From: Acidobacteriota bacterium | Lineage (GTDB): Bacteria; Acidobacteriota; UBA6911; RPQK01; JAJDTT01 | NCBI GenBank assembly: GCA_965217775.1 | Contig: CBDCJH010000002.1 | Span: 384,001 to 448,000, forward strand | Direction: 5' to 3' | Length of the DNA: 64,000 nt | Part shown: positions 32,873-64,000 of the stretch, piece by piece | Layout: each line of letters begins with the position of its first letter | Numbering within the stretch: position 1 is the first letter of the stretch | Program-made: the position numbers and the translations under genes | The notes under the pieces: generated by a model | The model's input: only the letters and a program-made list of their open reading frames with translations | Database searches by the model: none | Told to the model about the DNA's origin: nothing

Positions 32873-32916
32873 AGAACAACCCTCCTGCGGAATTCAGTCA
32901 CTGATTCGTATATTTA

Positions 32917-32990
32917 TGCGCCTGGCAGGACTCGAACCTGCGGCACAGGGGTTAGGAACCCCTTGCTCTGTCCTTCTGAGCTACAGGCGC
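32917..32990 (-). tRNA. tRNA-Arg (anticodon CCT)
   Basis: Reverse complement GCGCCTG TAGCTCAG...AGGGG-TTCCTAA-CCCCT...GGTTCGAGTCC...CAGGCGC-A. CCA is not encoded. Confidence 0.92.
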
Positions 32991-34914
32991 AATCGCAAAT
33001 AGTCTAGCATCCTCAGGCTGGAAGCCGCCACGGTATTGGCCCGGACGGATTGCCTACTTTCGACACCGAAAATACCTTGACGGCTGGTGTCGGGGACTAT
33101 ACATCGAACGCCGCTCGTGACCGCATCCCAGTCTCTCTTGGTCGCAAATCCTTAGTTCAACCAGCCACGGAGGCCGAATTTCGAGATGCGTAAGAATGTC
33201 AACTTTTCTTCGATTGGGATCATCCTTCTTCTGCTGAGCTTCACCAGCACCTTCGCCCAAAGGACGACGGCGGAGATCGTGGGCACGGTGACCGATGAAA
33301 CGGGAGGCGTGCTTCCCGGCGTGGAAGTCGTGATCACCAATCTGGACACGGCTCTGACCCGAAGCACCTTCACGAACGATTCCGGAAACTACCACGTCCG
33401 CCTCTTGCCGGTCGGCCGCTATTCCGTCAGCGGCGAGCTGGTGGGGTTCAAGAAGCAGGAAATCTCGGGAATCATCCTCCAGGTGGACCAGGTGGCTCGT
33501 ATCGATCTGAGCTTGGAGGTCGGAGAGATCACGGAGCTGGTGGAGATGGAAGGCACGGCGCCCCTGACCAAGACCGACGACGCCGACATCGGGATGGTGA
33601 TCGAGAACCAGCAGATCGAGGAACTCCCTCTTCGAGGCGAGAACTCCTTCGTCGATCTGGTCTCGCTGGATGCCGGAGCCGCCAAGGTTTCCGGCCATTT
33701 GACGTCGATCTTCACCGATCTGTTCGGAGGCATGACGAACGCCTACGGCTCCCCCCCGGACGGGTCGAGGTTCATGATCGACGGCGTGGACGTGAAGGAC
33801 ACCGCCTATCCCGGATCGATATCCGTCTGAGCGGCAACGCCACCCGGGAGATGAAGTCGCAGATGAACTCCCATTCGGCGGAGTTCGGAATGAACAGCGG
33901 CATCCAGGTCAACATGGTGACCAAGTCCGGGACCAATGAAATTCACGGAAACGTCTTCTGGGACCATCGCAACTCGTCGGCGAACGCACGGAATTTCTTC
34001 GATCCGTCCCGGGAAAGCCGGGTCCGGGAGGGTCTGTCCGAAGTTCCCATCCTTCAATTCAACATCTTCGGCGCCTCGGTCGGGGGACCCATCGTCCAAG
34101 ACCAGACCTTTTTCTTCTTCAACTACCAGGGCACGCGGGAAAACAAGTCGCTCACTCGTCCGGCCAGCGTTCCCACCATGAAGATGAGAAACGGCGACTT
34201 CTCCGAGATACTTCCCGGAACGGTGATCAAGGATCCGTTGACCGGCCAGCCCTTCCCGGGCAACATCATCCCCGAGAACCGGATCCATCCGGTGGCCCGC
34301 AACATGATGTTCGGCGTGGGTGAGGTCAATCCGCTGTGGCCCGTGCCCGATCGTCCCGGAATCGCCAACAACATCCTGCCCAGCCGTGTCCAGGAGCAGG
34401 TCTTCGACCAGTACGTCTTCCGCGTGGACCACAGCCTCACGGACTCGGACAACATCTGTGTCCGATACATTTACGACAAACAGGACCGGGTCCTGCGCTA
34501 CAACAAGTTCCTTCACCAACTCCCCGACTACAACGACATTTTCTCCACGCCCGCCCACAATGCTCGAGTCGGTTGGACCAAGGTCATGGGGGCGACGGCG
34601 GTCAATGAACTGAAACTGGGCGTCAACCGCATGACGCAGACGCTGGAAGATGAGATTTACGGCACGCCGGTTCCGAAGCTCCTGGGAATCGAGGGGACGT
34701 CGACCCTGTTTCAATACAATCCCTGGGTGAACGTGGCTGGTTTCAGCCGGACCGGCACCCTCTTGAACGCTCCCAACAACCGTGTGGACAACACCTATCT
34801 CGCCGGAGATACGATCTCGTGGAACGTGGGTTCTCATGCCCTCGGATTCGGAGGCGAGTGGAGGGAGAGAGAGCAGAACGGGGGATCCCAGCCGATACCC
34901 AACGGTTATTTTAT

Positions 34915-35015
34915 GGGGCTTATATACCTAAGTGCCCTTGGCATACAGTTCTGGCACCACGCTTTCCCCAACGAGATACGTTCCGGTACCCAGGGCAAGA
35001 ACCCCAGCCCTGAGA
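34915..35015 (-). ncRNA. Candidate omega-RNA scaffold overlapping the tnpB 3' end and the TIR
   Basis: Minus-strand stems CAGGGC/GCCCTG, GGTACC/GGTGCC enclosing ACG..CGT, and TGTATGCC-AAG-GGCA-CTT-A-GGTATATA. Position is typical of omega-RNAs. Boundaries are inferred. Confidence 0.5.
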
Positions 35016-36103
35016 ATGTTCAGGGCGGCATTGTGGTCCCTGTCCATTCCAAGTCCGCAGGCCCTGCACCGGAAGGTTTCGCTCCGCCCTGGATCGTGGC
35101 GGGCGCCGCACCGGTGGCAGTCCTGCGATGTAAATGCGGGATTCACTTCTACGAACTTCCGACCGGCCCATTCTGCCTTGTACTGGATTTGATTCCGCAG
35201 AAGCCCCCAGGATTGCGTCAGTATTTCTCGATTCAGCCCCTTCTTCTTCGAGCCCTTCGTTACCATCCCTTGGATGTTCAGCTTCTCCACAGCGATCAGA
35301 CCGTGCTCACGAATGATCCTGCTGGAGAGACGATGGCAGGCATTACGGTTTCGGACCGATTCCCGGTGACGGAGCCGAGATAGCTGTACGATCCGCTTCC
35401 GTCTGGTCTTGGAAATCTTCTTGCACCTGGAGACCTTTCTCTGCTGCTTTCGGATCTCCCCCCAGTCCCGTCGATTCCGTTCGATCCTCTCACCCGTGGA
35501 CAGCACCGCTCGCTTGCGGACGCCCAGGTCGATCCCTACCGAAGACTCGCATTTCGGTAGCGGCGGCTTCTCCACCTCGTACGTCAGGTCCACATACACC
35601 CGGTTCGGCTTGCGGACAATCCGCAACGCTTTCAACGGGCATCCGTCCGGCAACGGCCGGGACGGAAATATCCGGATCGTCGGGAAGCCCTTGGGCCGGA
35701 TGGCGTAGCCCCGAGCGCGCTTCTTCACCAGGGTCGCTTTGGGGTCGACGACGTCGATGGTCTCCATCCTCGCCAGGGGCCGGAATCGAGGATACCCCGG
35801 CTTCTCCCCCGCCTTGCAGCGACGGAAAAACGCCTTGAAGGCCCGGTCCAACCGCATCAACATCCCACGCTCCGCCTTGACCGCCACCGACCCGAGCCCC
35901 TCCGGATCGTCCTTCCTCTGGGAGGTCAACCCCTTCATCTGATCGTACAGGGTCACGCCGCGTTGCTCGGATTCCCAGGCCGTCCTGCGTTCCTCCAGTG
36001 CAGCGTTGTACAGCCGATTCAGGATGGACCTCACCCCGTCCAACCGCCGGATTCCACCCTTGGACAGCTTGGCTCGGCACTGGATAGTTGCGTGGCCTTT
36101 CAT
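34928..36103 (-). CDS. tnpB: RNA-guided endonuclease TnpB
   Basis: LYNAALEER, KPGYPRFR, RuvC-I GIDLG, RuvC-II IAVEKL, Zn finger CHRCG/CRACG and RuvC-III DRDHNAALNI. Confidence 0.92.
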   Translation of the reverse strand: MKGHATIQCRAKLSKGGIRRLDGVRSILNRLYNAALEERRTAWESEQRGVTLYDQMKGLTSQRKDDPEGLGSVAVKAERGMLMRLDRAFKAFFRRCKAGEKPGYPRFRPLARMETIDVVDPKATLVKKRARGYAIRPKGFPTIRIFPSRPLPDGCPLKALRIVRKPNRVYVDLTYEVEKPPLPKCESSVGIDLGVRKRAVLSTGERIERNRRDWGEIRKQQRKVSRCKKISKTRRKRIVQLSRLRHRESVRNRNACHRLSSRIIREHGLIAVEKLNIQGMVTKGSKKKGLNREILTQSWGLLRNQIQYKAEWAGRKFVEVNPAFTSQDCHRCGARHDPGRSETFRCRACGLGMDRDHNAALNILRAGVLALGTGTYLVGESVVPELYAKGT

Positions 36104-36110
36104 GGTCGGA

Positions 36111-36116
36111 ATTGTA
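36111..36116 (-). promoter_or_regulatory. Candidate -10 box for a leaderless tnpB transcript
   Basis: TACAAT 7 nt upstream of the tnpB ATG, with no Shine-Dalgarno sequence. Confidence 0.45.
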
Positions 36117-37821
36117 ACCCATCAGCCTGAATTCTCGGCACTTACGTATATAATCCCCTATTTTATCTTCGCCCCCGTCTACACCGGTTATGCCATGGCG
36201 GATCTGATGCTGGGCTATCACCGGACGGCCATCACGGGCCGGGAAGACGGTTTCGGAAACTACAGCCACAACAACGTCAGTATCCACTTCAAGGACACCT
36301 GGAAGGTCAGCTCCAAGGTGACTCTGGACCTGGGCCTGCGCTGGGACTACTTCTCACCCTATACCGATTCGAGAGATCGGATCTCGCAGTTCGATCCGGG
36401 TTCGGGATTGCTGATTCTGGTGGGTGATCCGCGCCCGACCGACGCTTCCCACTATGCATTGCCGGCGGAATACGGCGTTGCCGAGCGCATGCTCTCTCCG
36501 TTGATCTCGGACGCGAGCTGGCCTCATGGAAGGCTGCTTCAGGCGCGCGACCTGAACGACTGGGCTCCGAGAGTCGGTCTGGCTTTTCGTCCCTTCGGCG
36601 GAAACGAGACGGTTGTTCGGGCGAGCTACACCCCTTTCGACACCTTCTACATGCAGCGGGTCGGTTTCAACAAGCCCTTCGTGAACCAGCAGACCTTCGT
36701 GAATCAGTTGGACGAGCAAGGTGTTCCCGTGTTCACCATCGACAGGCCGTTTCCTGAGGGCTCGGGTATTCCTTCGTCGACGGGGTAGGGATTTCAGCCG
36801 GATTGGGCCCACGGTTACAACCAACAGTACAACGTCACCGTGGAAAGAGCCCTGTCTCAAACCGCCGTCTTCGAGCTCGGTTACATCGGCAACAAAGGCA
36901 CCAAACTGATCCGCGACGGGAACCTGAACCTGGCGGCTCCCGGTCCCGGCAGCCGCGTGAATCGAAGGCCCTATCAGAATTGGGCGACCGTCGGCTGGAG
37001 ACAGCCCACTGCCAACTCCTCCTATCACGGGATGAGAGTCAATCTGAAGCAGGGATTCAGCAACGGTTTCCTGGGCAACATTTCCTACGTCTATTCCAAG
37101 TGGCTCGACTGTGGTGGAAACAACCTGTTCGCCGACCTGGGGGACAGCGTGAAGAGGAATCCCTTCGACTGTGCGGCGGAAAAAGGGCGCAGCGCTTCCG
37201 ATTACCGGCAGCGGTTCGTCTACAATTTCGTCTACCAGATTCCGGTCATGCGAGGATCCGGCCACGGACTTGCGGGAGCCATCCTGGGTGAATGGAACAT
37301 CAGCAGCATCGGGACCTTCTCTTCGTCCGGGGCGGTCGACGTCGGCAGTCCATTCGATCCCGACAACACGGGAGCGGCCAATCGGCCTGATCTCACCGGG
37401 AATCCGAACAGTGGGCCCCGAAACGCCCAGCAGTGGTTCAATACCAAGGCGTTCACGCGGGTTCCGAATCCGGCGGAAACGGGCGTCTACCGTTTTGGAA
37501 ACGCCGGCCGCAACATCATCGACGGTCCCGGCTGGACCACGGTCGACTTTTCGGTCTGGAAGTCCTGGCACGCGGCGCAGGAAGCAGTACGGATCGAGTT
37601 TCGAGTCGATTTCTTCAACATCACCAATCACACGAACTTCGATCTCCCCAATCGTAATTTCGGAACGGGAGCCTTTGGAACGATGGGCAACGCCGGGAAT
37701 TCGCGGCATCTTCAATTCGGCCTGAATGTCCAGTTCTAGAGATGTCGTCTCAGGCCCGGAAAGAAAACCTGTCGGCAAGTCCGTCTCGAATGGTCTCGAA
37801 TAAGAAGGAGAAGTTGAAGAT

Positions 37822-39747: not shown

Positions 39748-41415
39748 TTGCTGCCGTTCCAATTCTCCGCATTGCGGTCTGCAATGATTGCAATCGCGTT
39801 TTTTCTCCTCTGCCATCCGCTGTACGCACAGCAGCCATCCGGCAGCCGTGTGCTGTTCTCCGACGTCACCCAGGCGTCCGGAATCGACTTTCTTCACGAG
39901 AGCGGTCAATCCCAGGAAAAACTGATCGTCGAGACGGTCGGTTCCGGTGTGGCGTGGCTCGACTACGACAATGACGGGCATCCGGATCTTTATTTTGTGA
40001 ACGGTTCAAGGATGTCTGAGAACAAGCCCTCGCCTGGAAATGCGCTTTTTCGAAACGACGGCGCCGGGACTTTCGAAAACGTCACCAGGAAGGCTGGAGT
40101 CGAAGGCAATGGATCGTACGGCATGGGTGTGGCCGTGGGAGACTACGACAACGACGGCCGGCTGGACCTCTACGTGACCAACTACGGTCCCAATCAACTG
40201 TTCCGCAACCATGGGGACGGAACCTTCGGGGAGGTGGCCTCGAAGGCCGGTGTCGACAGCCGGCAGTGGGGAAGCAGCGCCGGCTTTTTCGACTTCGATC
40301 GCGACGGAGACCTCGACCTCTATGTCGTCAACTATCTGGACTACGATCCGGACGACAATCCCTACTGTGGACTGCCCAAGGAGGGGTACCGTCTCTACTG
40401 CGACATCCGCATGTTCGAGGGAGCGGCGGATCAGTTGTACCGAAACGATGGCGACGGTTCATTTTCCGATGTGTCGAGTTCCGCGGGGATCGCCAATCCG
40501 GCCGGCAAGGGCCTGGGATTGACCTTTTCCGATTTCGATCTAGACGGCTACCCGGACATCTACGTCGCCAACGATACGATTCGGGACTTCCTGTACCGAA
40601 ACAACCGGGACGGCACGTTTTCCGACGTCACGTACGCCGCCGCAGTCGGTTTCGACGCCAACGGCGAACCGCAGGCGGGAATGGGGGTGGACGCGGCCGA
40701 TCTGAACCAGGACGGTCTGCCGGAGATCTTCGTCACGAATTTCGCGTACGAACTCAATGCGCTTTACCGGAACGGTCCCGGCCTTCTCTTTGAGGAGGTC
40801 TCGGAGAGAGTCGGACTAGGCTCCGGACTTCTTCCCCTGGGATTCGGAACCAAGCTCTTCGACTATGACAATGACGGCGACGCGGACGTCTACGTTGCCA
40901 ACGGACACATCGAAAACAACGTCCACCTCTACTTTCCCAACCTCACCTACGCTCAGACGGATCTTCTCTACGAGAACCTGGGAACCAGCTTCTTCGATGT
41001 CTCCGCCGAGAGTGGGACCCCCTTCAGTCGTCCGGCTGTCGGAAGGGGGGCGGCGGTTGCCGACTATGACAATGACGGAGACCTCGACATTGCGTTGTCC
41101 AACTCGGGCGGGTACGCGGTTTTAATGAGAAACGAAGGTGGAAACCGGAATCACTGGATCGCAATCCAGGCTCGCGGCCGGGAGAGCAACTCCTTCGGCC
41201 TGGGTGCCGGCGTGCGGATTGAGACGGTGCAAGGAACTCAGGTGGGGCAGATCAACAACGTGGCGAGTTATCTGAGTGCCAACGATCTCCGGGTATATTT
41301 CGGCTTGGGCCGGCTGCAGCAGATCAAGAGTGTCGAGTTGAACTGGCCCAGCGGCAGGAAACAGGTTCTTTCGAATGTACCGGCCAATCAGATCCTGAGA
41401 GTCACCGAGCCGTAG
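39748..41415 (+). CDS. CRTAC1 family protein (FG-GAP repeats, ASPIC/UnbV domain)
   Basis: Repeated DYDNDG..DLY units and C-terminal YFGLG...WPSG. Confidence 0.88.
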   Translation: MLPFQFSALRSAMIAIAFFLLCHPLYAQQPSGSRVLFSDVTQASGIDFLHESGQSQEKLIVETVGSGVAWLDYDNDGHPDLYFVNGSRMSENKPSPGNALFRNDGAGTFENVTRKAGVEGNGSYGMGVAVGDYDNDGRLDLYVTNYGPNQLFRNHGDGTFGEVASKAGVDSRQWGSSAGFFDFDRDGDLDLYVVNYLDYDPDDNPYCGLPKEGYRLYCDIRMFEGAADQLYRNDGDGSFSDVSSSAGIANPAGKGLGLTFSDFDLDGYPDIYVANDTIRDFLYRNNRDGTFSDVTYAAAVGFDANGEPQAGMGVDAADLNQDGLPEIFVTNFAYELNALYRNGPGLLFEEVSERVGLGSGLLPLGFGTKLFDYDNDGDADVYVANGHIENNVHLYFPNLTYAQTDLLYENLGTSFFDVSAESGTPFSRPAVGRGAAVADYDNDGDLDIALSNSGGYAVLMRNEGGNRNHWIAIQARGRESNSFGLGAGVRIETVQGTQVGQINNVASYLSANDLRVYFGLGRLQQIKSVELNWPSGRKQVLSNVPANQILRVTEP

Positions 41416-60328: not shown

Positions 60329-61418
60329 CGCCGGTCGGATCGGAACCGGTATCCATTCGTATTCGAATCAGTCGGGAATGACCGGCAGGACCACATGAGA
60401 CGGGTAGCGGTCATCGTGATAGATGGTCTGGGTCGCGACCTTCATCTCCGCACTCTTGCCCAATGGATTGCCGGTGTTCAAATTCCTGGCGAAACGTGGG
60501 AAGTTGCTGCTGGAAACCTCCAGCCGGATGCGGCTTCCCGGCTGAAACTCCCAACTCGTCTCCCAGATCTCGATTGGAATCTCGTAGACCCTTCCGGGTT
60601 CGATCAAGGTCGGATTTTCCAACGATTCCCGGAAGCTGGCCCGGCGGATCCCCTCACTGATGTGAATTGCCGTTCCATCCGCCAACACCTCGGTCAAGAC
60701 GGCAGTGAAATCGGTGTCGACCGCGCTGGAAGCGGCATAGAGCTTCAACTCGATGGGGCCCGTGACCTCCAGCTTTTGGGTCAAGGGCTCACTGGTATAG
60801 ATCAGGACGTCGTCCCGCTTCTGGACGGGCCGGCGGTCCTGAGGCCCTCTCTGGTCGGGAGGAAACTCGGTCTGTCCTCCCACGGTGGGGACGGGGTTGG
60901 CGGGATCGTATTGGAAGCTGTCTTGAGGAGCACCGTCAGGCGGGGGTGACGTTCCCAGGGTGCCGTCGCCAGGGACGGAGTTGGCGGCTCCGCCGCTATT
61001 CAGGTAGTACTTGGTCCACCGGGTGCGGGCCAGGGGCCATTCGTGCTCGTCACGCCACTTGTTGGCGCGCATCACGAACAGCCGGATGGGGGCCTCCTGG
61101 TCGATGCCGTTGGGGATGCCCTTGAGCCAATAGTCATACCATCGGACGTGCAACTCCTCGACGTCGAGAAGGGAGGATTCCCCAAAGTCGATCACCCAGT
61201 TGTCGTAGGTCTGATTGTAGGAATGGGACCAGGGTCCGACCAGGATCTTGGTCTGCTTCCGGGCCAACTCGGATCCCCCTTCCTCTCGAAAGCCGATGAA
61301 CTGCCGCCAGATCTCATGTTCCAGGTTGTCGTACCAACCGGTCAGGAAGTAGGCGGGGACCTGGATCTGGTCGTACTTTCCCTTGGGGATTATATACGAA
61401 AGTGCCGAAACCTGAGCA

Positions 61419-61601
61419 TTAACGCCGGTTCCGTGGCCGGTCTATCCATCTGATATTCACGGGCTGGACCAATGCACGGGCCAGCTCCTCGAAGTCTGCT
61501 TCCACGCGCATATCCGGTTCCAGTTCGGCCTTGGTCGGTTGGTAGGAATCCTTGACCAGTTCGATGGTGGGATGTTGGGGATTGTGTCTGGGTTTCTTCA
61601 T
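61419..61601 (-). CDS. Small hypothetical passenger protein (60 aa)
   Basis: ATGA overlap with the upstream stop; ends 8 bp inside the TIR boundary. Confidence 0.5.
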   Translation of the reverse strand: MKKPRHNPQHPTIELVKDSYQPTKAELEPDMRVEADFEELARALVQPVNIRWIDRPRNRR

Positions 61602-62103
61602 GCGGCCCTCGGCATCCTAGGTTGTTTCCCCTCAAAGTAGTCTTCCGCCGTGTAGATTTGAATCTTGGGCAGGTCCATGAAGCGTCCGGCGTTGACGGCG
61701 GCATTTCTCATGCCGTTGGTCACTCGGTCTCGAAAGCAGGTGAAGATGCCGAGATCAGCTCCGGCCTGTCGACGTGCGCCGTTGAAGGCTTGGACGTGTC
61801 CGGGATTGGTAGAGCCGCCTTTGACCTGAGAAACGATGTCAATGAACCGGCCCTTGCGGATCGGGAGCCGTCCCACGCCGTCAATTCCGCCATCCCGTCT
61901 CTGGATTCGGTTCGGCTCCGTACCCTCCACCAGAGCAGCAGCCCACCTCTCAAACCGGAATTTATCGATGCTGGCAAGCTCCTGAGCGTGTGTGATGGTA
62001 TGGGGAAGGCCAATGTCTTGGGTGTGTTCCCAACGGATTCATCCGGGACATCCTCCCGCATGACTTCAAGGTGGTCTCCAAAGCTCAGTCGATTTTCGTT
62101 CAA
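61598..62103 (-). pseudogene. Internally deleted DNA methyltransferase/Mrr-like nuclease passenger
   Basis: MNENRLSFGDHLEVMREDVPDESV (MTase-like start) joined out of frame to ...DKFRFERWA...DGGIDG...SQVKGG (Mrr-like). Confidence 0.65.
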
Positions 62104-63050
62104 CCCACCAAATCCTTGTAACGCAGCCGCTTTCCCACCATCCGGTCAGCGACCAGGGCCATTTGATCCAACGTGTCCATGCGCCTTAGGTTGTGACGTG
62201 CGGCAAACTCTCCAACGTATCGGTCGGTGTGCTGTTCCGAGAAGTGGTGAAAGGTTCCGTGGTAACTCCGCTTCAACATCGACCAGAACGATTCGGCTCC
62301 GTTGGTGTGGCAGTTGCCTTTGACGTACTCCTGAAGAGAATGCTTGACCGTCTCGTGATTGACAAGCCGGCCGTAAGAGGTTGAATCGTCGGTGTAGATC
62401 TTGGCATCTTCTCCCACGTGCTCCAAGACGAAACGGGAGAGGGTTTCAGACTTGGTGTCAGGGACGACTCGGGCCGACACTTGGTTGGAGGGGCGATCTT
62501 TGACGGCAGCCACGGCCGTCTTTCCAACGGCTCCACGTCCCTCCAGTTTGGCGCGTTTGGCCTTCGGCATATTCTTCCGCTTTCCGCCGAGATACGCCTC
62601 GTCAGCCTCGACCGGGCCGGAGAACAGGGCCATTCCAGTCAGGTTCAGACCTTTCCGTATCCGGTGAGCAAGGTGCCAAGCCGTCTTCTGTGTTACGTCC
62701 AGGTCACGATGCAGCTTCATGGAGGAAACGCTCTTGAGGCTGGTAGTAAGGAGGTAGGTCGCAAGCAACCAAGTCTGATAGCCGAGTTTGGAGGACTGCA
62801 TAACCGTCCCGACCCGGACGCTGAACCGCTTGCCGCAATCGCGGCAACGATACGGCATGGAAGGATGCTTGGCTCCGGTCTGGACGTTGGTGGAGCCGCA
62901 ATGGACGCAACAGACTTCCTCCGGCCACCGCCGCTTTATGAACCATTCCTCAGCGGCTTTATCGTCGGGAAATCTCTTGAAGAATCCGCGCAGTGAAAGT
63001 CCCTCTCGGAACGCCTTTCCGGGTGCCTTGTTCCGTGTCTCGTAACTCAT
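62100..63050 (-). CDS. IS1595-family DDE transposase
   Basis: Zn ribbon CVHC...CRDC, VEADEAYLGG, IYTDD, HTNGAESFWS and YVGEF. Confidence 0.92.
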   Translation of the reverse strand: MSYETRNKAPGKAFREGLSLRGFFKRFPDDKAAEEWFIKRRWPEEVCCVHCGSTNVQTGAKHPSMPYRCRDCGKRFSVRVGTVMQSSKLGYQTWLLATYLLTTSLKSVSSMKLHRDLDVTQKTAWHLAHRIRKGLNLTGMALFSGPVEADEAYLGGKRKNMPKAKRAKLEGRGAVGKTAVAAVKDRPSNQVSARVVPDTKSETLSRFVLEHVGEDAKIYTDDSTSYGRLVNHETVKHSLQEYVKGNCHTNGAESFWSMLKRSYHGTFHHFSEQHTDRYVGEFAARHNLRRMDTLDQMALVADRMVGKRLRYKDLVG

Positions 63051-63075
63051 TGCAGCCTCCTGACTTACAAGACAT

Positions 63076-63104
63076 ATTCTATAGGAAAGTACCGGGATTG
63101 TCAA
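63076..63104 (-). promoter_or_regulatory. Sigma70 promoter for the IS1595 transposase
   Basis: TTGACA-17 bp-TAGAAT, followed by an AGGAGG RBS before the ATG at 63050. Confidence 0.7.
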
Positions 63105-64000
63105 CCCCTACGGGAAACCTTTTCGGCACTTTCGTATATAATCCCCTTTCCCTTGGTTCCGTAGGACTTCCAGTAGTCGTCGTAGGTGGGGTGATCCAAC
63201 AGCGTCTTGACCCAGGGACGGTCCACCATCTCATCCAGGGCGGTGTAAAGGGGGAGCCGCGAGAAGATCTCGTTCCAGTCCATCAGGGGATGGTCGAAAA
63301 TGCCGGGCCAGAAGGCCATGCCCCGGTTGACCCAGAGGAACTCGGCCACGAAGATCACGTTCAATTGGGGGATGCCGTCGTTGTAGAGGTGACCGAAGTT
63401 GGTCTCCTGATTGGCGCTCGGCATCAGGGCTTTCAGGTTGGGATGCTGGTAACGGGCCGGCATCACCTGTGTGAAGCCGTCGTAGGAATGCCCGAAGGTC
63501 CCGATCTTCCCGTTGCACCAGTCCTGCTCGGCCAGCCACTTCTGAGTGTCGAATCCGTCCTGCGGGTCATTGACGTAGGGGTGCCAGACCCCCTCGGAGT
63601 CGTGACGGCCGCGGAGATCCACCGTGACCGCGGCATAGCCCCTTTCGGCGAAATAGACCGCCCGGCTCACCACGTCGGGACGCATGTTGTTGTAGGCGGT
63701 CATCAACATCAAAGTGGGGAACGGGCCGGGTGCATCCGGCCGGTAGATGTCAGCCGAAAGATGGACTCCATCCCGCATCGGCACCTTGGCGTCGAGCGAA
63801 AAAACGACCTTGTGCCCGGGTTGGGAGAGTTCGGCCTGTCCACAGCCGAAGACCGTAAACAGTAGAGAGGAAAACACCATCGTCACTATACTGGATCGCA
63901 GGTTGGTCTTCGCCTCGAACATCAGGCCGTCCTCCTGGAAGTGGACCGGTTTTGCGTTGACTTCGTTCCGGGCGGCATGGAGCCGCCAAAGATGTTGCTC

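Follow-up and report, generated by a model that had tools for sequence, protein, structure and literature searches.

The locus described here raises the question of how a gene for the RNA-guided nuclease TnpB can provide its guide RNA, the omega-RNA, when the element that carries it is bounded by the terminal inverted repeats (TIRs) of a DDE transposon and the tnpB stop codon lies inside one of them. The element occupies 1244 bp of a 64,000-nt stretch of an Acidobacteriota genome (hereafter the window; all coordinates are positions in it, and the tnpB strand is the minus strand), the genome itself comprising two contigs and 6.43 Mb. It is reported that TnpB processes its mRNA into the guide RNA (PMC10278001), and a preliminary description made from the window proposed that in this case the RNA uses an IS1595-type repeat as its terminal hairpin. 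Sequence comparison across relatives of the element supports the view that the right repeat belongs to the omega-RNA scaffold and has co-evolved with it. The fuller reading, which we consider probable as a whole, is that an IS1595-type element mobilised in trans carries an omega-RNA built partly from its right end, takes its guide from the adjoining flank and uses a G beside the insertion as its target-adjacent motif (TAM).

The tnpB element, its copies and its relatives

The left (LE) and right (RE) inverted repeats form a pair of 22 nt that is 91% complementary over a distance of 1200 nt, and the same 8-bp duplication, ATAAAATA on the tnpB strand, stands at both ends of the element (Table 1). 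RE and LE differ at two positions, 34928 and 34919. The repeat motif has four matches in the window where none is expected, two at the tnpB element and two at the ends of a second, autonomous element of the IS1595 family, which has perfect repeats, an 8-bp duplication (TTTCCCTT) and a transposase recognised by Pfam (DDE_Tnp_IS1595, 1.8e-38, and Zn_ribbon_IS1595) and by NCBIfam (transpos_IS1595, 177 bits against a cut-off of 75). Because open reading frame (ORF) and Pfam analysis found no transposase gene inside the tnpB element while this partner has one, the tnpB element is a non-autonomous derivative and not an insertion sequence in its own right; it is best read as a derivative of IS1595 that is probably mobilised in trans by the IS1595 transposase.

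Table 1. Features of the tnpB element, of its predicted omega-RNA and of the IS1595-family element, in window coordinates
Feature	Position	Strand	Basis or remark
Non-autonomous tnpB element, 1244 bp	34915-36158	minus	22-nt inverted repeats and 8-bp duplication
tnpB coding sequence, 391 aa, stop TAG at 34930-34928	34928-36103	minus	Pfam, NCBIfam, RuvC residues, dN/dS
Left inverted repeat (LE)	36137-36158	minus	matches the autonomous IS1595 repeat at 21/22 positions
Right inverted repeat (RE)	34915-34936	minus	predicted loop, 3' arm and tail of the terminal RNA hairpin
Target-site duplication, LE-side copy	36159-36166	no strand	flanking 8-bp direct repeat
Target-site duplication, RE-side copy	34907-34914	no strand	predicted first 8 nt of the guide
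G directly 5' of the LE-side duplication, candidate one-base TAM	36167	minus	55/56 insertions
Predicted omega-RNA scaffold core	34915-35018	minus	covariance model, covariation, synonymous rate
H1 of the predicted omega-RNA	35012-35007 paired with 34996-34991	minus	
Pseudoknot loop strand (H1 loop)	35005-35000	minus	
H2 of the predicted omega-RNA	34990-34953	minus	
Linker (AGAAC-type) of the predicted omega-RNA	34952-34947	minus	
Terminal hairpin H3 of the predicted omega-RNA	34947-34921	minus	
Tail of the predicted omega-RNA, pseudoknot strand	34920-34915	minus	
Predicted guide, duplication and host flank, length assumed	34895-34914	minus	expected from TnpB biology
Autonomous IS1595-family element, 1762 bp	61385-63146	minus	transposase ORF 62100-63104; likely source of transposase in trans

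The tnpB product matches the Pfam families OrfB_IS605 (PF01385, 65.6 bits) and Cas12f1-like_TNB (PF07282, 88.7 bits), both above cut-off, as well as the NCBIfam family guided_TnpB (215 bits, cut-off 100), and it scores under the specific cut-offs of IS200_TnpB (164 bits, cut-off 425) and IS607_TnpB (127 bits, cut-off 350). Among 23 aligned relatives the RuvC residues D192, E273 and D356 are invariant and the zinc-finger cysteines C329, C332, C346 and C349 are conserved in at least 90%, and the ratio of nonsynonymous to synonymous rates (dN/dS) is 0.30 across the 66 pairs formed by 12 intact copies, ten from the source genome and two from a congener. By these measures the nuclease is intact and under purifying selection.

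Twelve tnpB elements of the window's subfamily are present in the source genome, all at distinct sites; their duplications are perfect in ten, carry one mismatch in one and are replaced by unmatched flanks in one, the 391-aa tnpB ORF is intact in 10/12, and 9/12 have the identical RE sequence. IS1595 itself is found there as four copies with identical transposase and one split copy. Matches to Y1_Tnp number three, all weak, the nearest lying about 17 kb from any tnpB copy. The copy with unmatched flanks (L005, G000:C2:1186780-1188023) has an intact tnpB between the 8-mers AATGGATT and AAACATAT, as would be expected if two copies had recombined and so rearranged the chromosome. Two further copies are decaying, one of 1406 bp in which tnpB is split by an internal insertion (L012/L017, G000:C2:4647309-4648714) and one of 1265 bp with an in-frame TGA (L013, 2358592-2359856). 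The autonomous IS1595 copies also carry a passenger ORF of 110 aa (61598-61930, minus strand) with weak restriction-endonuclease-like matches (NA-iREase1 1.4e-7, Mrr_cat 2.3e-4), adjoined by a 127-aa ORF without a family, and the two may represent a single gene that changes frame.

Genomes of the same genus contain tnpB elements of 73-97% protein identity with diverged repeats of the same type, and a scan of species-representative genomes recovered relatives at 40-55% identity, most of them with the same architecture, in metagenome-assembled genomes (MAGs) of Bryobacterales/Terriglobia, Candidatus Binatia, Caldilineaceae and Dehalococcoidia. The IS1595-type tnpB elements are thus not a single case but a whole family in Acidobacteriota, Binatia and Chloroflexota. 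A search for repeats with flanking duplications at 117 loci (at most 4/14 mismatches in the repeat and 1/8 in the duplication) gave 57 non-duplicate calls, 15 duplicate calls and 45 no-calls; with L144 set aside for its different repeat, 56 insertions were counted; L120 and L121 among them are the same orthologous site, which therefore entered the count twice. A FastTree phylogeny of 118 TnpB rows, arbitrarily rooted and with support values that are approximate, contains a split with 100% support that separates all repeat-type elements from canonical relatives in which the right end has a GGGAGTAGTCAC-type motif and no repeat; the IS1595-type rows form a 52-row group (support 84). A metagenome scan returned mostly distant canonical TnpBs without repeats and, as only L168-L172 look IS1595-like, gave no replication set; six or seven repeat-plus-duplication calls from it were rejected as chance, being GC-rich with 2-4 repeat mismatches.

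Three elements of SAR202 / Dehalococcoidia MAGs (L144, L147 and L152) belong to the sister group of the IS1595-type clade and have another inverted repeat (GAGACGATTTCA...) and duplications of 6-9 bp whose borders are ambiguous, so that the base beside them could not be judged at L144 and L152; they may represent a second capture by another DDE transposon. Separately, the insertion in the window and L019 (G014:C1, ~1.946 Mb), which are independent and lie in different genomes and flanks, have the identical duplication ATAAAATA, and L112 and L125 likewise have the duplication CTACGAT(A/T) in common. Duplications common to independent insertions suggest a strong site preference.

The right repeat as part of the predicted omega-RNA

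The minimum free energy (MFE) fold of the last 161 nt of the element ends in a stem of 11 bp with the loop GGCA and a 6-nt tail, the stem being formed by 34947-34937 and 34932-34921 with A34929 bulged. This is the stem-loop with a TIR-derived 3' arm that the preliminary description had drawn, and other observations made there from the window alone also hold: the TAG stop lies within RE and the 13 nt that follow it leave no room for a separate IS605 right end, two more hairpins do lie upstream of the terminal one (and, as shown below, covary), and one of the two positions at which RE departs from LE creates a C-G pair in the stem (G34928 with C34940). It had missed that the same C-to-G change makes the TAG stop. 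As other subfamilies place the stop elsewhere, the RNA pairing is the more general explanation of G34928.

Comparison of relatives shows the structure to be conserved. When the last 110 nt of 13 Acidobacteriota representatives are folded jointly with RNAalifold, two hairpins appear within the coding sequence, H1 and H2, together with the terminal H3 and its repeat-derived 3' arm, and compensatory changes are found at 14/27 pairs. In this alignment 98.0% of cells pair, against 30-48% when the partners are slid by 1-3 columns, and changes on both sides occur in 14 pairs against 3-5 in the slid versions; none of 500 shuffles reaches the observed values. A covariance model built from the 13 sequences matches all of 28 representatives (chosen to be less than 93% similar in the last 150 nt) with E-values of 1e-30 to 2e-4, in each case ending on the last base of the element, and has 0/6 matches at E <= 1 among autonomous IS1595 loci. 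In the window it reports the scaffold core with 103 bits and E 1e-27. In the resulting alignment of 30 rows (the 28 representatives, a second element in L106 and a 12-bit match in L150) 96.4% of cells pair, against 35-53% slid, and both partners change in 24/33 pairs. Despite differing repeat sequences the family retains the terminal hairpin, with a median stem of 11 bp and a median unpaired tail of 7 nt. The preliminary description had called for such a covariation analysis, which finds the terminal stem conserved with compensatory changes, and its proposal that TIR and scaffold have co-evolved is supported by the exact-end matches in 28/28 elements, by the lack of matches in the six autonomous loci and by the pairing of both RE differences.

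The second of these differences makes a pair in a pseudoknot that the preliminary description had overlooked. The six outermost bases of the right repeat are complementary to the loop of H1, and G34919 pairs there with U35001. Across the family the words in tail and loop covary, AAGCCCC occurring with GGGGUU, AAUUCCC with GGGAAU and AAGUCCC with GGGACU. When tested without an alignment, at least six consecutive pairs are formed with the element's own tail in 23/28 cases and with foreign, different tails in 131/532, and 97.7% of the pseudoknot's cells pair in the 30-row alignment, even though the covariance model had not been fitted to this helix. At pair 17/155 the combinations are GC 16, AU 12 and GU 2, and at pair 18/154 UG 13, AU 11, CG 3 and other 3. 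The fifth base from the tip is G at the right end and T at the left end in several subfamilies.

The asymmetry of the ends is also seen in their folding: read in the same repeat orientation, the last 50 nt have a mean energy of -13.2 kcal/mol at RE and -6.4 at LE, and the RE fold is the stabler in 25/28 representatives (Wilcoxon p = 4e-6). A count of pairs available to the right repeat only (38/58 paired differences) was set aside as biased, the fold having been derived from the right end. The many G-U pairs of the scaffold fit an RNA of the sense strand.

The coding sequence is constrained in a way that fits such an RNA. The tnpB stop falls 5-33 nt from the RE end in 13/13 representatives and the C-terminal tails of the proteins differ, so the last codons are shaped by something other than the protein. 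Between the 12 intact copies the synonymous rate drops from 0.062 over codons 1-350 to 0.013 over codons 351-391, and among the 13 representatives identical residues use identical codons at a frequency of 0.70-0.75 in codons 365-391, as compared with about 0.5 in most other windows of the alignment. A second peak of synonymous conservation (0.75 vs ~0.5) is found at codons 305-319, around 35147-35191 and some 230-275 nt upstream of the RE end; it might mark a 5' part of the omega-RNA or another overlapping signal.

An Rfam scan of 34000-37000 at E <= 10 found no family match, with one chance snoRNA match only, and a second hit of the covariance model in the window (40583-40683, 15 bits) is likewise attributed to chance, there being no repeat at that place. 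A diverged omega-RNA-like match of 58 bits (L106:504-613, minus strand) lies upstream of a Bryobacterales tnpB element in opposite orientation and ends in the same repeat type, and may belong to a neighbouring or nested element.

These results bear on the possibility that the terminal hairpin is a feature of the DNA or of transcription termination, with TnpB a passenger that has no guide from the flank, being inactive, regulatory or guided by an RNA made elsewhere. Such an arrangement would agree with the RNA-library contigs discussed below, which show no RNA ends, and domesticated TnpB relatives with fixed guides are reported to exist (PMC10705468). Against it, neither the left end nor the ends of autonomous IS1595 show the hairpin, which moreover has no U tract, it covaries with upstream coding sequence and is linked to H1 by the pseudoknot, its G-U pairs make it strand-specific, and the nuclease has its RuvC triad, shows purifying selection and travels on a multi-copy mobile element. 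We regard it as very improbable. The reading in which the right repeat is part of an omega-RNA scaffold is taken as the basis of what follows.

The insertion site, the candidate motif and the guide

If the guide starts directly after the right end, as in IS605, the base directly 5' of the LE-side duplication (position -1, oriented as tnpB) would occupy the place of the TAM. The comparison of flanks that the preliminary description had suggested in search of a common TAM yields a single candidate there: the base at -1 is G in 55/56 non-duplicate insertions, with the base at -2 variable and the mirror position +9 after the RE-side duplication C in just 15/56. At the ends of autonomous IS1595-type elements, as read by eye from the table of ends, G is found in 9/22 on the transposase-upstream side and in 15/44 when both sides are pooled, and the contrast between 55/56 and 15/44 has a Fisher p of 4e-13. 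Left ends without a duplication call, also read by eye and kept outside the count, show about 13 G and 1-2 A; an automated tally of these ends was discarded because its alignment slipped by 0-3 nt. The asymmetry of the repeats fails to explain the rule, as it holds at three elements (L025, L151 and L167) in which the first 14 repeat bases are identical at both ends. As the rule is kept across repeat subfamilies and three phyla, it tracks the TnpB clade and not the repeat sequence.

The same observations weigh on the idea that the scaffold is as described but that the conserved G is no TAM, recording some other orientation-dependent bias of insertion or survival, for example if the ends of the tnpB element influenced how its right end carries out strand transfer, with joining at the step between G and A. 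DDE chemistry would indeed place the top-strand joint of the right end between the G and duplication position 1, and a TAM of one base would be unusual. Autonomous IS1595 elements with the same outer repeat bases nevertheless do not follow the rule (the 15/44 above), elements with symmetric first 14 bases do, and a property that persists across repeat subfamilies and three phyla follows the TnpB clade. We therefore hold this alternative to be improbable and retain the G as the candidate TAM.

The bases of the duplication itself show another pattern. Positions 2 and 7 are A or T in 56/56 insertions, a symmetric preference that also appears in autonomous IS1595 (by eye, among 14 copies of the 1762-bp type, 13 have A/T at position 2 and all have it at position 7), while positions 4-6 and 8 are free to vary. 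The base at position 1 is A in 42, C in 10, T in 4 and G in none (n=56); it is A in 24/24 of the window's clade, and C in 8/16 and A in 7/16 of the Bryobacterales-like elements. These figures admit a register of the kind known from Fanzor, in which the duplication or its first bases would belong to scaffold or TAM, the guide would start inside or after it, and the motif would be G together with the first, A/T-rich bases of the duplication (in the window's clade, G-A-W-W). In the passages of Yoon et al. 2023 (PMC10711439) concerned with Fanzor RNAs, the guide-RNA scaffold of Fanzor1/Fanzor2* is predicted to include the repeats and duplications, and the RNAs run ~15 nt past the duplication, and a passage of a 2026 review of OMEGA systems (PMC13565253) describes the 5' duplication as part of the TAM; the bias at position 1, clade-dependent and never G, would fit. 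On the other side, positions 4-6 and 8 are free, and the symmetric A/T at positions 2 and 7, present in autonomous IS1595 as well, makes most of the duplication bias a target preference of the transposase, so that the sole invariant directional base lies outside the duplication. A Fanzor-like register seems to us unlikely, though a more serious contender than the other alternatives, and we continue with a guide that would begin at the first base of the duplication.

The guide would then consist of the duplication and the host DNA beyond it. The first 16 nt of the guide predicted in the window occur once in the source genome, and nine guides of 16 nt predicted in this way from that genome each occur there exactly once. 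The preliminary description had held that the guide would be reset by each insertion; this is normal behaviour for TnpB and not a peculiarity of the element. Sponge metatranscriptome runs contain the element. One contig of 1226 nt, from run X1, extends from 36088 through RE to 34863, that is, 52 nt into the flank found in the window, and contigs of X2, X3 and X5 pass the end of RE into flanks other than this one. The contigs of X1, X2 and X5 do not cover the left-repeat region 36100-36155, and this is not evidence on the question. The empty allele is present as well: contigs from two RNA-library runs connect 34906 with 36159, omitting 1252 nt, and the 8 nt that fit both sides correspond to a single duplication copy in an uninterrupted allele. 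As the preliminary description had stated, this allele has GGCGAAG 5' of the single copy.

Several points weigh against the reading as a whole. For mobilisation by the IS1595 transposase the evidence consists of repeat identity and multi-copy spread. The fold of the whole 161 nt is just moderately better than those of shuffled sequences (z = -1.98), the 30-row alignment was fitted to H1-H3, though not to the pseudoknot, and shuffle controls overstate significance because the elements are kin. A scan for sigma-70-like promoters found none on the tnpB strand, and the four RNA-library runs provide contigs, which give no RNA end, strand or level and could stem from DNA carried over. The rule for G has an exception (L034, a longer copy with a truncated tnpB match and A at -1) and, by eye, a second in L029, and 45/117 loci had no repeat-plus-duplication call and stand outside the count. 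Since the first duplication bases are biased, the motif could overlap the duplication and the guide could start later. The TAMs known for studied TnpBs have 4-5 nt, and a TAM of one base would be shorter. Finally, a motif needed for homing only would be kept here in 98% of surviving copies, and no test of ours explains why.

The gene that the element interrupts lies on the plus strand and encodes an outer-membrane barrel (Pfam OMP_b-brl_4). In its full extent (33186-37739) it combines CarboxypepD_reg and OMP_b-brl_4 in the manner of a TonB-dependent receptor, and it has frame breaks beyond the insertion, with ORF frame shifts near 33830/33851 and at 36790-36840; it may be a pseudogene, or else there may be assembly errors in this region. 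A tRNA-like sequence, spotted by eye only, lies just upstream of it (32905-32990, minus strand).

Proposed mechanism and relation to known systems

In the mechanism that we propose, an IS1595 DDE transposase supplied from elsewhere in the genome would move the tnpB-only element in trans and create the 8-bp duplication. The omega-RNA would be the 3' part of the tnpB transcript, with H1 and H2 in the coding sequence, the AGAAC-type linker, a terminal hairpin of about 11 bp and a tail of 6-7 nt. The 3' arm of this hairpin would be the inner half of the right repeat, and the outermost repeat bases would pair with the loop of H1, so that the same DNA is both a site for the transposase and an RNA scaffold; the bases at which the right repeat has come to differ from the left would be ones that pair in the RNA. 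With transcription continuing into the flank, the guide would be composed of the duplication and host DNA. The nuclease so guided would recognise the unoccupied allele, where a G, the candidate minimal TAM, is followed by one duplication copy and the right flank. The occupied right junction would be spared because the base before the guide match is the terminal C of the repeat, and the left junction because the LE-side duplication matches the guide for 8 nt only. Once empty alleles were cut, recombination would restore the element or spread it, which is the role proposed for the TnpBs of IS605 and IS607. A homing role of TnpB was reportedly described by Meers et al. in 2023.

The family resembles the IS200/IS605 and IS1341-type elements (e.g. 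ISDra2) in its protein family and RuvC triad, in a scaffold that overlaps the 3' end of tnpB and ends at the right end of the element, in a pseudoknot between an upstream loop and guide-adjacent bases, and in a guide predicted from the right flank with a candidate TAM beside the left end. Elements of the IS200/IS605 and IS1341 groups are marked by asymmetric ends that carry subterminal hairpins and by a Y1 TnpA, and have neither inverted repeats nor a duplication. The family differs from IS200/IS605 in the 22-bp inverted repeats and 8-bp duplication of the window element, in being apparently moved by a DDE transposase and in having no ends of the type used by the Y1 transposase TnpA; moreover, the last ~30 nt of its scaffold are repeat, its predicted target includes the duplication and its candidate TAM is a single G. 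Its own distant canonical relatives, in contrast, end in the GGGAGTAGTCAC-type motif without a repeat. With the IS1595 insertion sequences it has in common the repeat sequence, the A/T-rich duplication of 8 bp and a probable dependence on the IS1595 DDE transposase, and it differs from the autonomous members in that tnpB replaces the transposase, the right repeat is asymmetric and the rule for G is directional.

Other parallels come from work on DDE-associated and eukaryotic relatives. Altae-Tran et al. 2023 (PMC10691335), in the passages on this subject, describe six DDE-associated TnpB branches with inverted terminal repeats, naming IS630, in which the 3' end of TnpB is <250 bp from the transposon end and solo TnpBs stand between ends like those of transposase-bearing elements; IS1595 appears there only in a supporting-information appendix list of comparison families. 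Inverted repeats, the position of TnpB near the transposon end and the solo state are thus common to these branches and the family described here, but the same passages describe no repeat-built RNA structure, no pseudoknot with the repeat tip and no TAM. The OMEGA review, in the part that treats such partnerships, calls those between TnpB and DDE transposases rare in prokaryotes, lists ISL2, IS630 and IS1031 as TnpB-associated and asks whether inflexible target recognition is the reason (PMC13565253).

Fanzor1 and Fanzor2* are alike in that a TnpB-family nuclease sits in a non-autonomous inverted-repeat element and the RNA, in the sections of PMC10711439 that deal with it, reads across the duplication. 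Fanzor is, however, eukaryotic or viral and of another protein clade, whereas the hosts of the window family are bacterial MAGs, so the likeness is one of working and not of membership. In those sections the Fanzor duplications are mostly short, of fixed sequence and counted as scaffold or TAM, and Fanzor1 pseudoknots are reported absent; the window family has variable duplications of 8 bp, keeps a pseudoknot with the repeat tip and has its conserved base outside the duplication. Its pseudoknot corresponds to that of the IS607 TnpB RNA, for which mutation and rescue are reported in the same paper. The IS607 RNA is also similar in that a boundary sequence imposed by the transposase is recoded into the scaffold, the right-flanking nucleotide in its case (as described in passages of PMC10711439), although IS607 has a serine recombinase and, unlike the window element, neither inverted repeats nor a duplication.

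Full-text searches of the literature found, among the papers listed, no description of IS1595-type TnpB elements, of a hairpin and pseudoknot built from the repeat, or of the rule for G. The concept is already known; the novelty appears to lie in the IS1595-type family, in the two functions that each half of its repeat serves, and in a lone conserved base located outside a duplication whose sequence varies. The family offers one concrete bacterial solution to the partnership of TnpB with a DDE transposon, with the transposase-binding repeat recoded as the last hairpin and pseudoknot strand, and in which the variable 8-bp duplication apparently joins the target, the only fixed base needed lying outside it. 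We put forward more tentatively, as a possibility short of a probable one, that the clade uses a single-base TAM (G) and that cutting of the empty site by TnpB is practically required for the persistence of a DDE-mobilised element without a transposase. If the one-base TAM holds, this compact nuclease of 391 aa would have almost no sequence restriction on its targets and a very wide targeting range. The directional rule for G would then also count as population-genetic evidence that the survival of insertions depends on TnpB activity, and, if this tentative reading is true, a nuclease-only parasite would live in an RNA-guided partnership of 'restorative homing' with IS1595 in at least three bacterial phyla.

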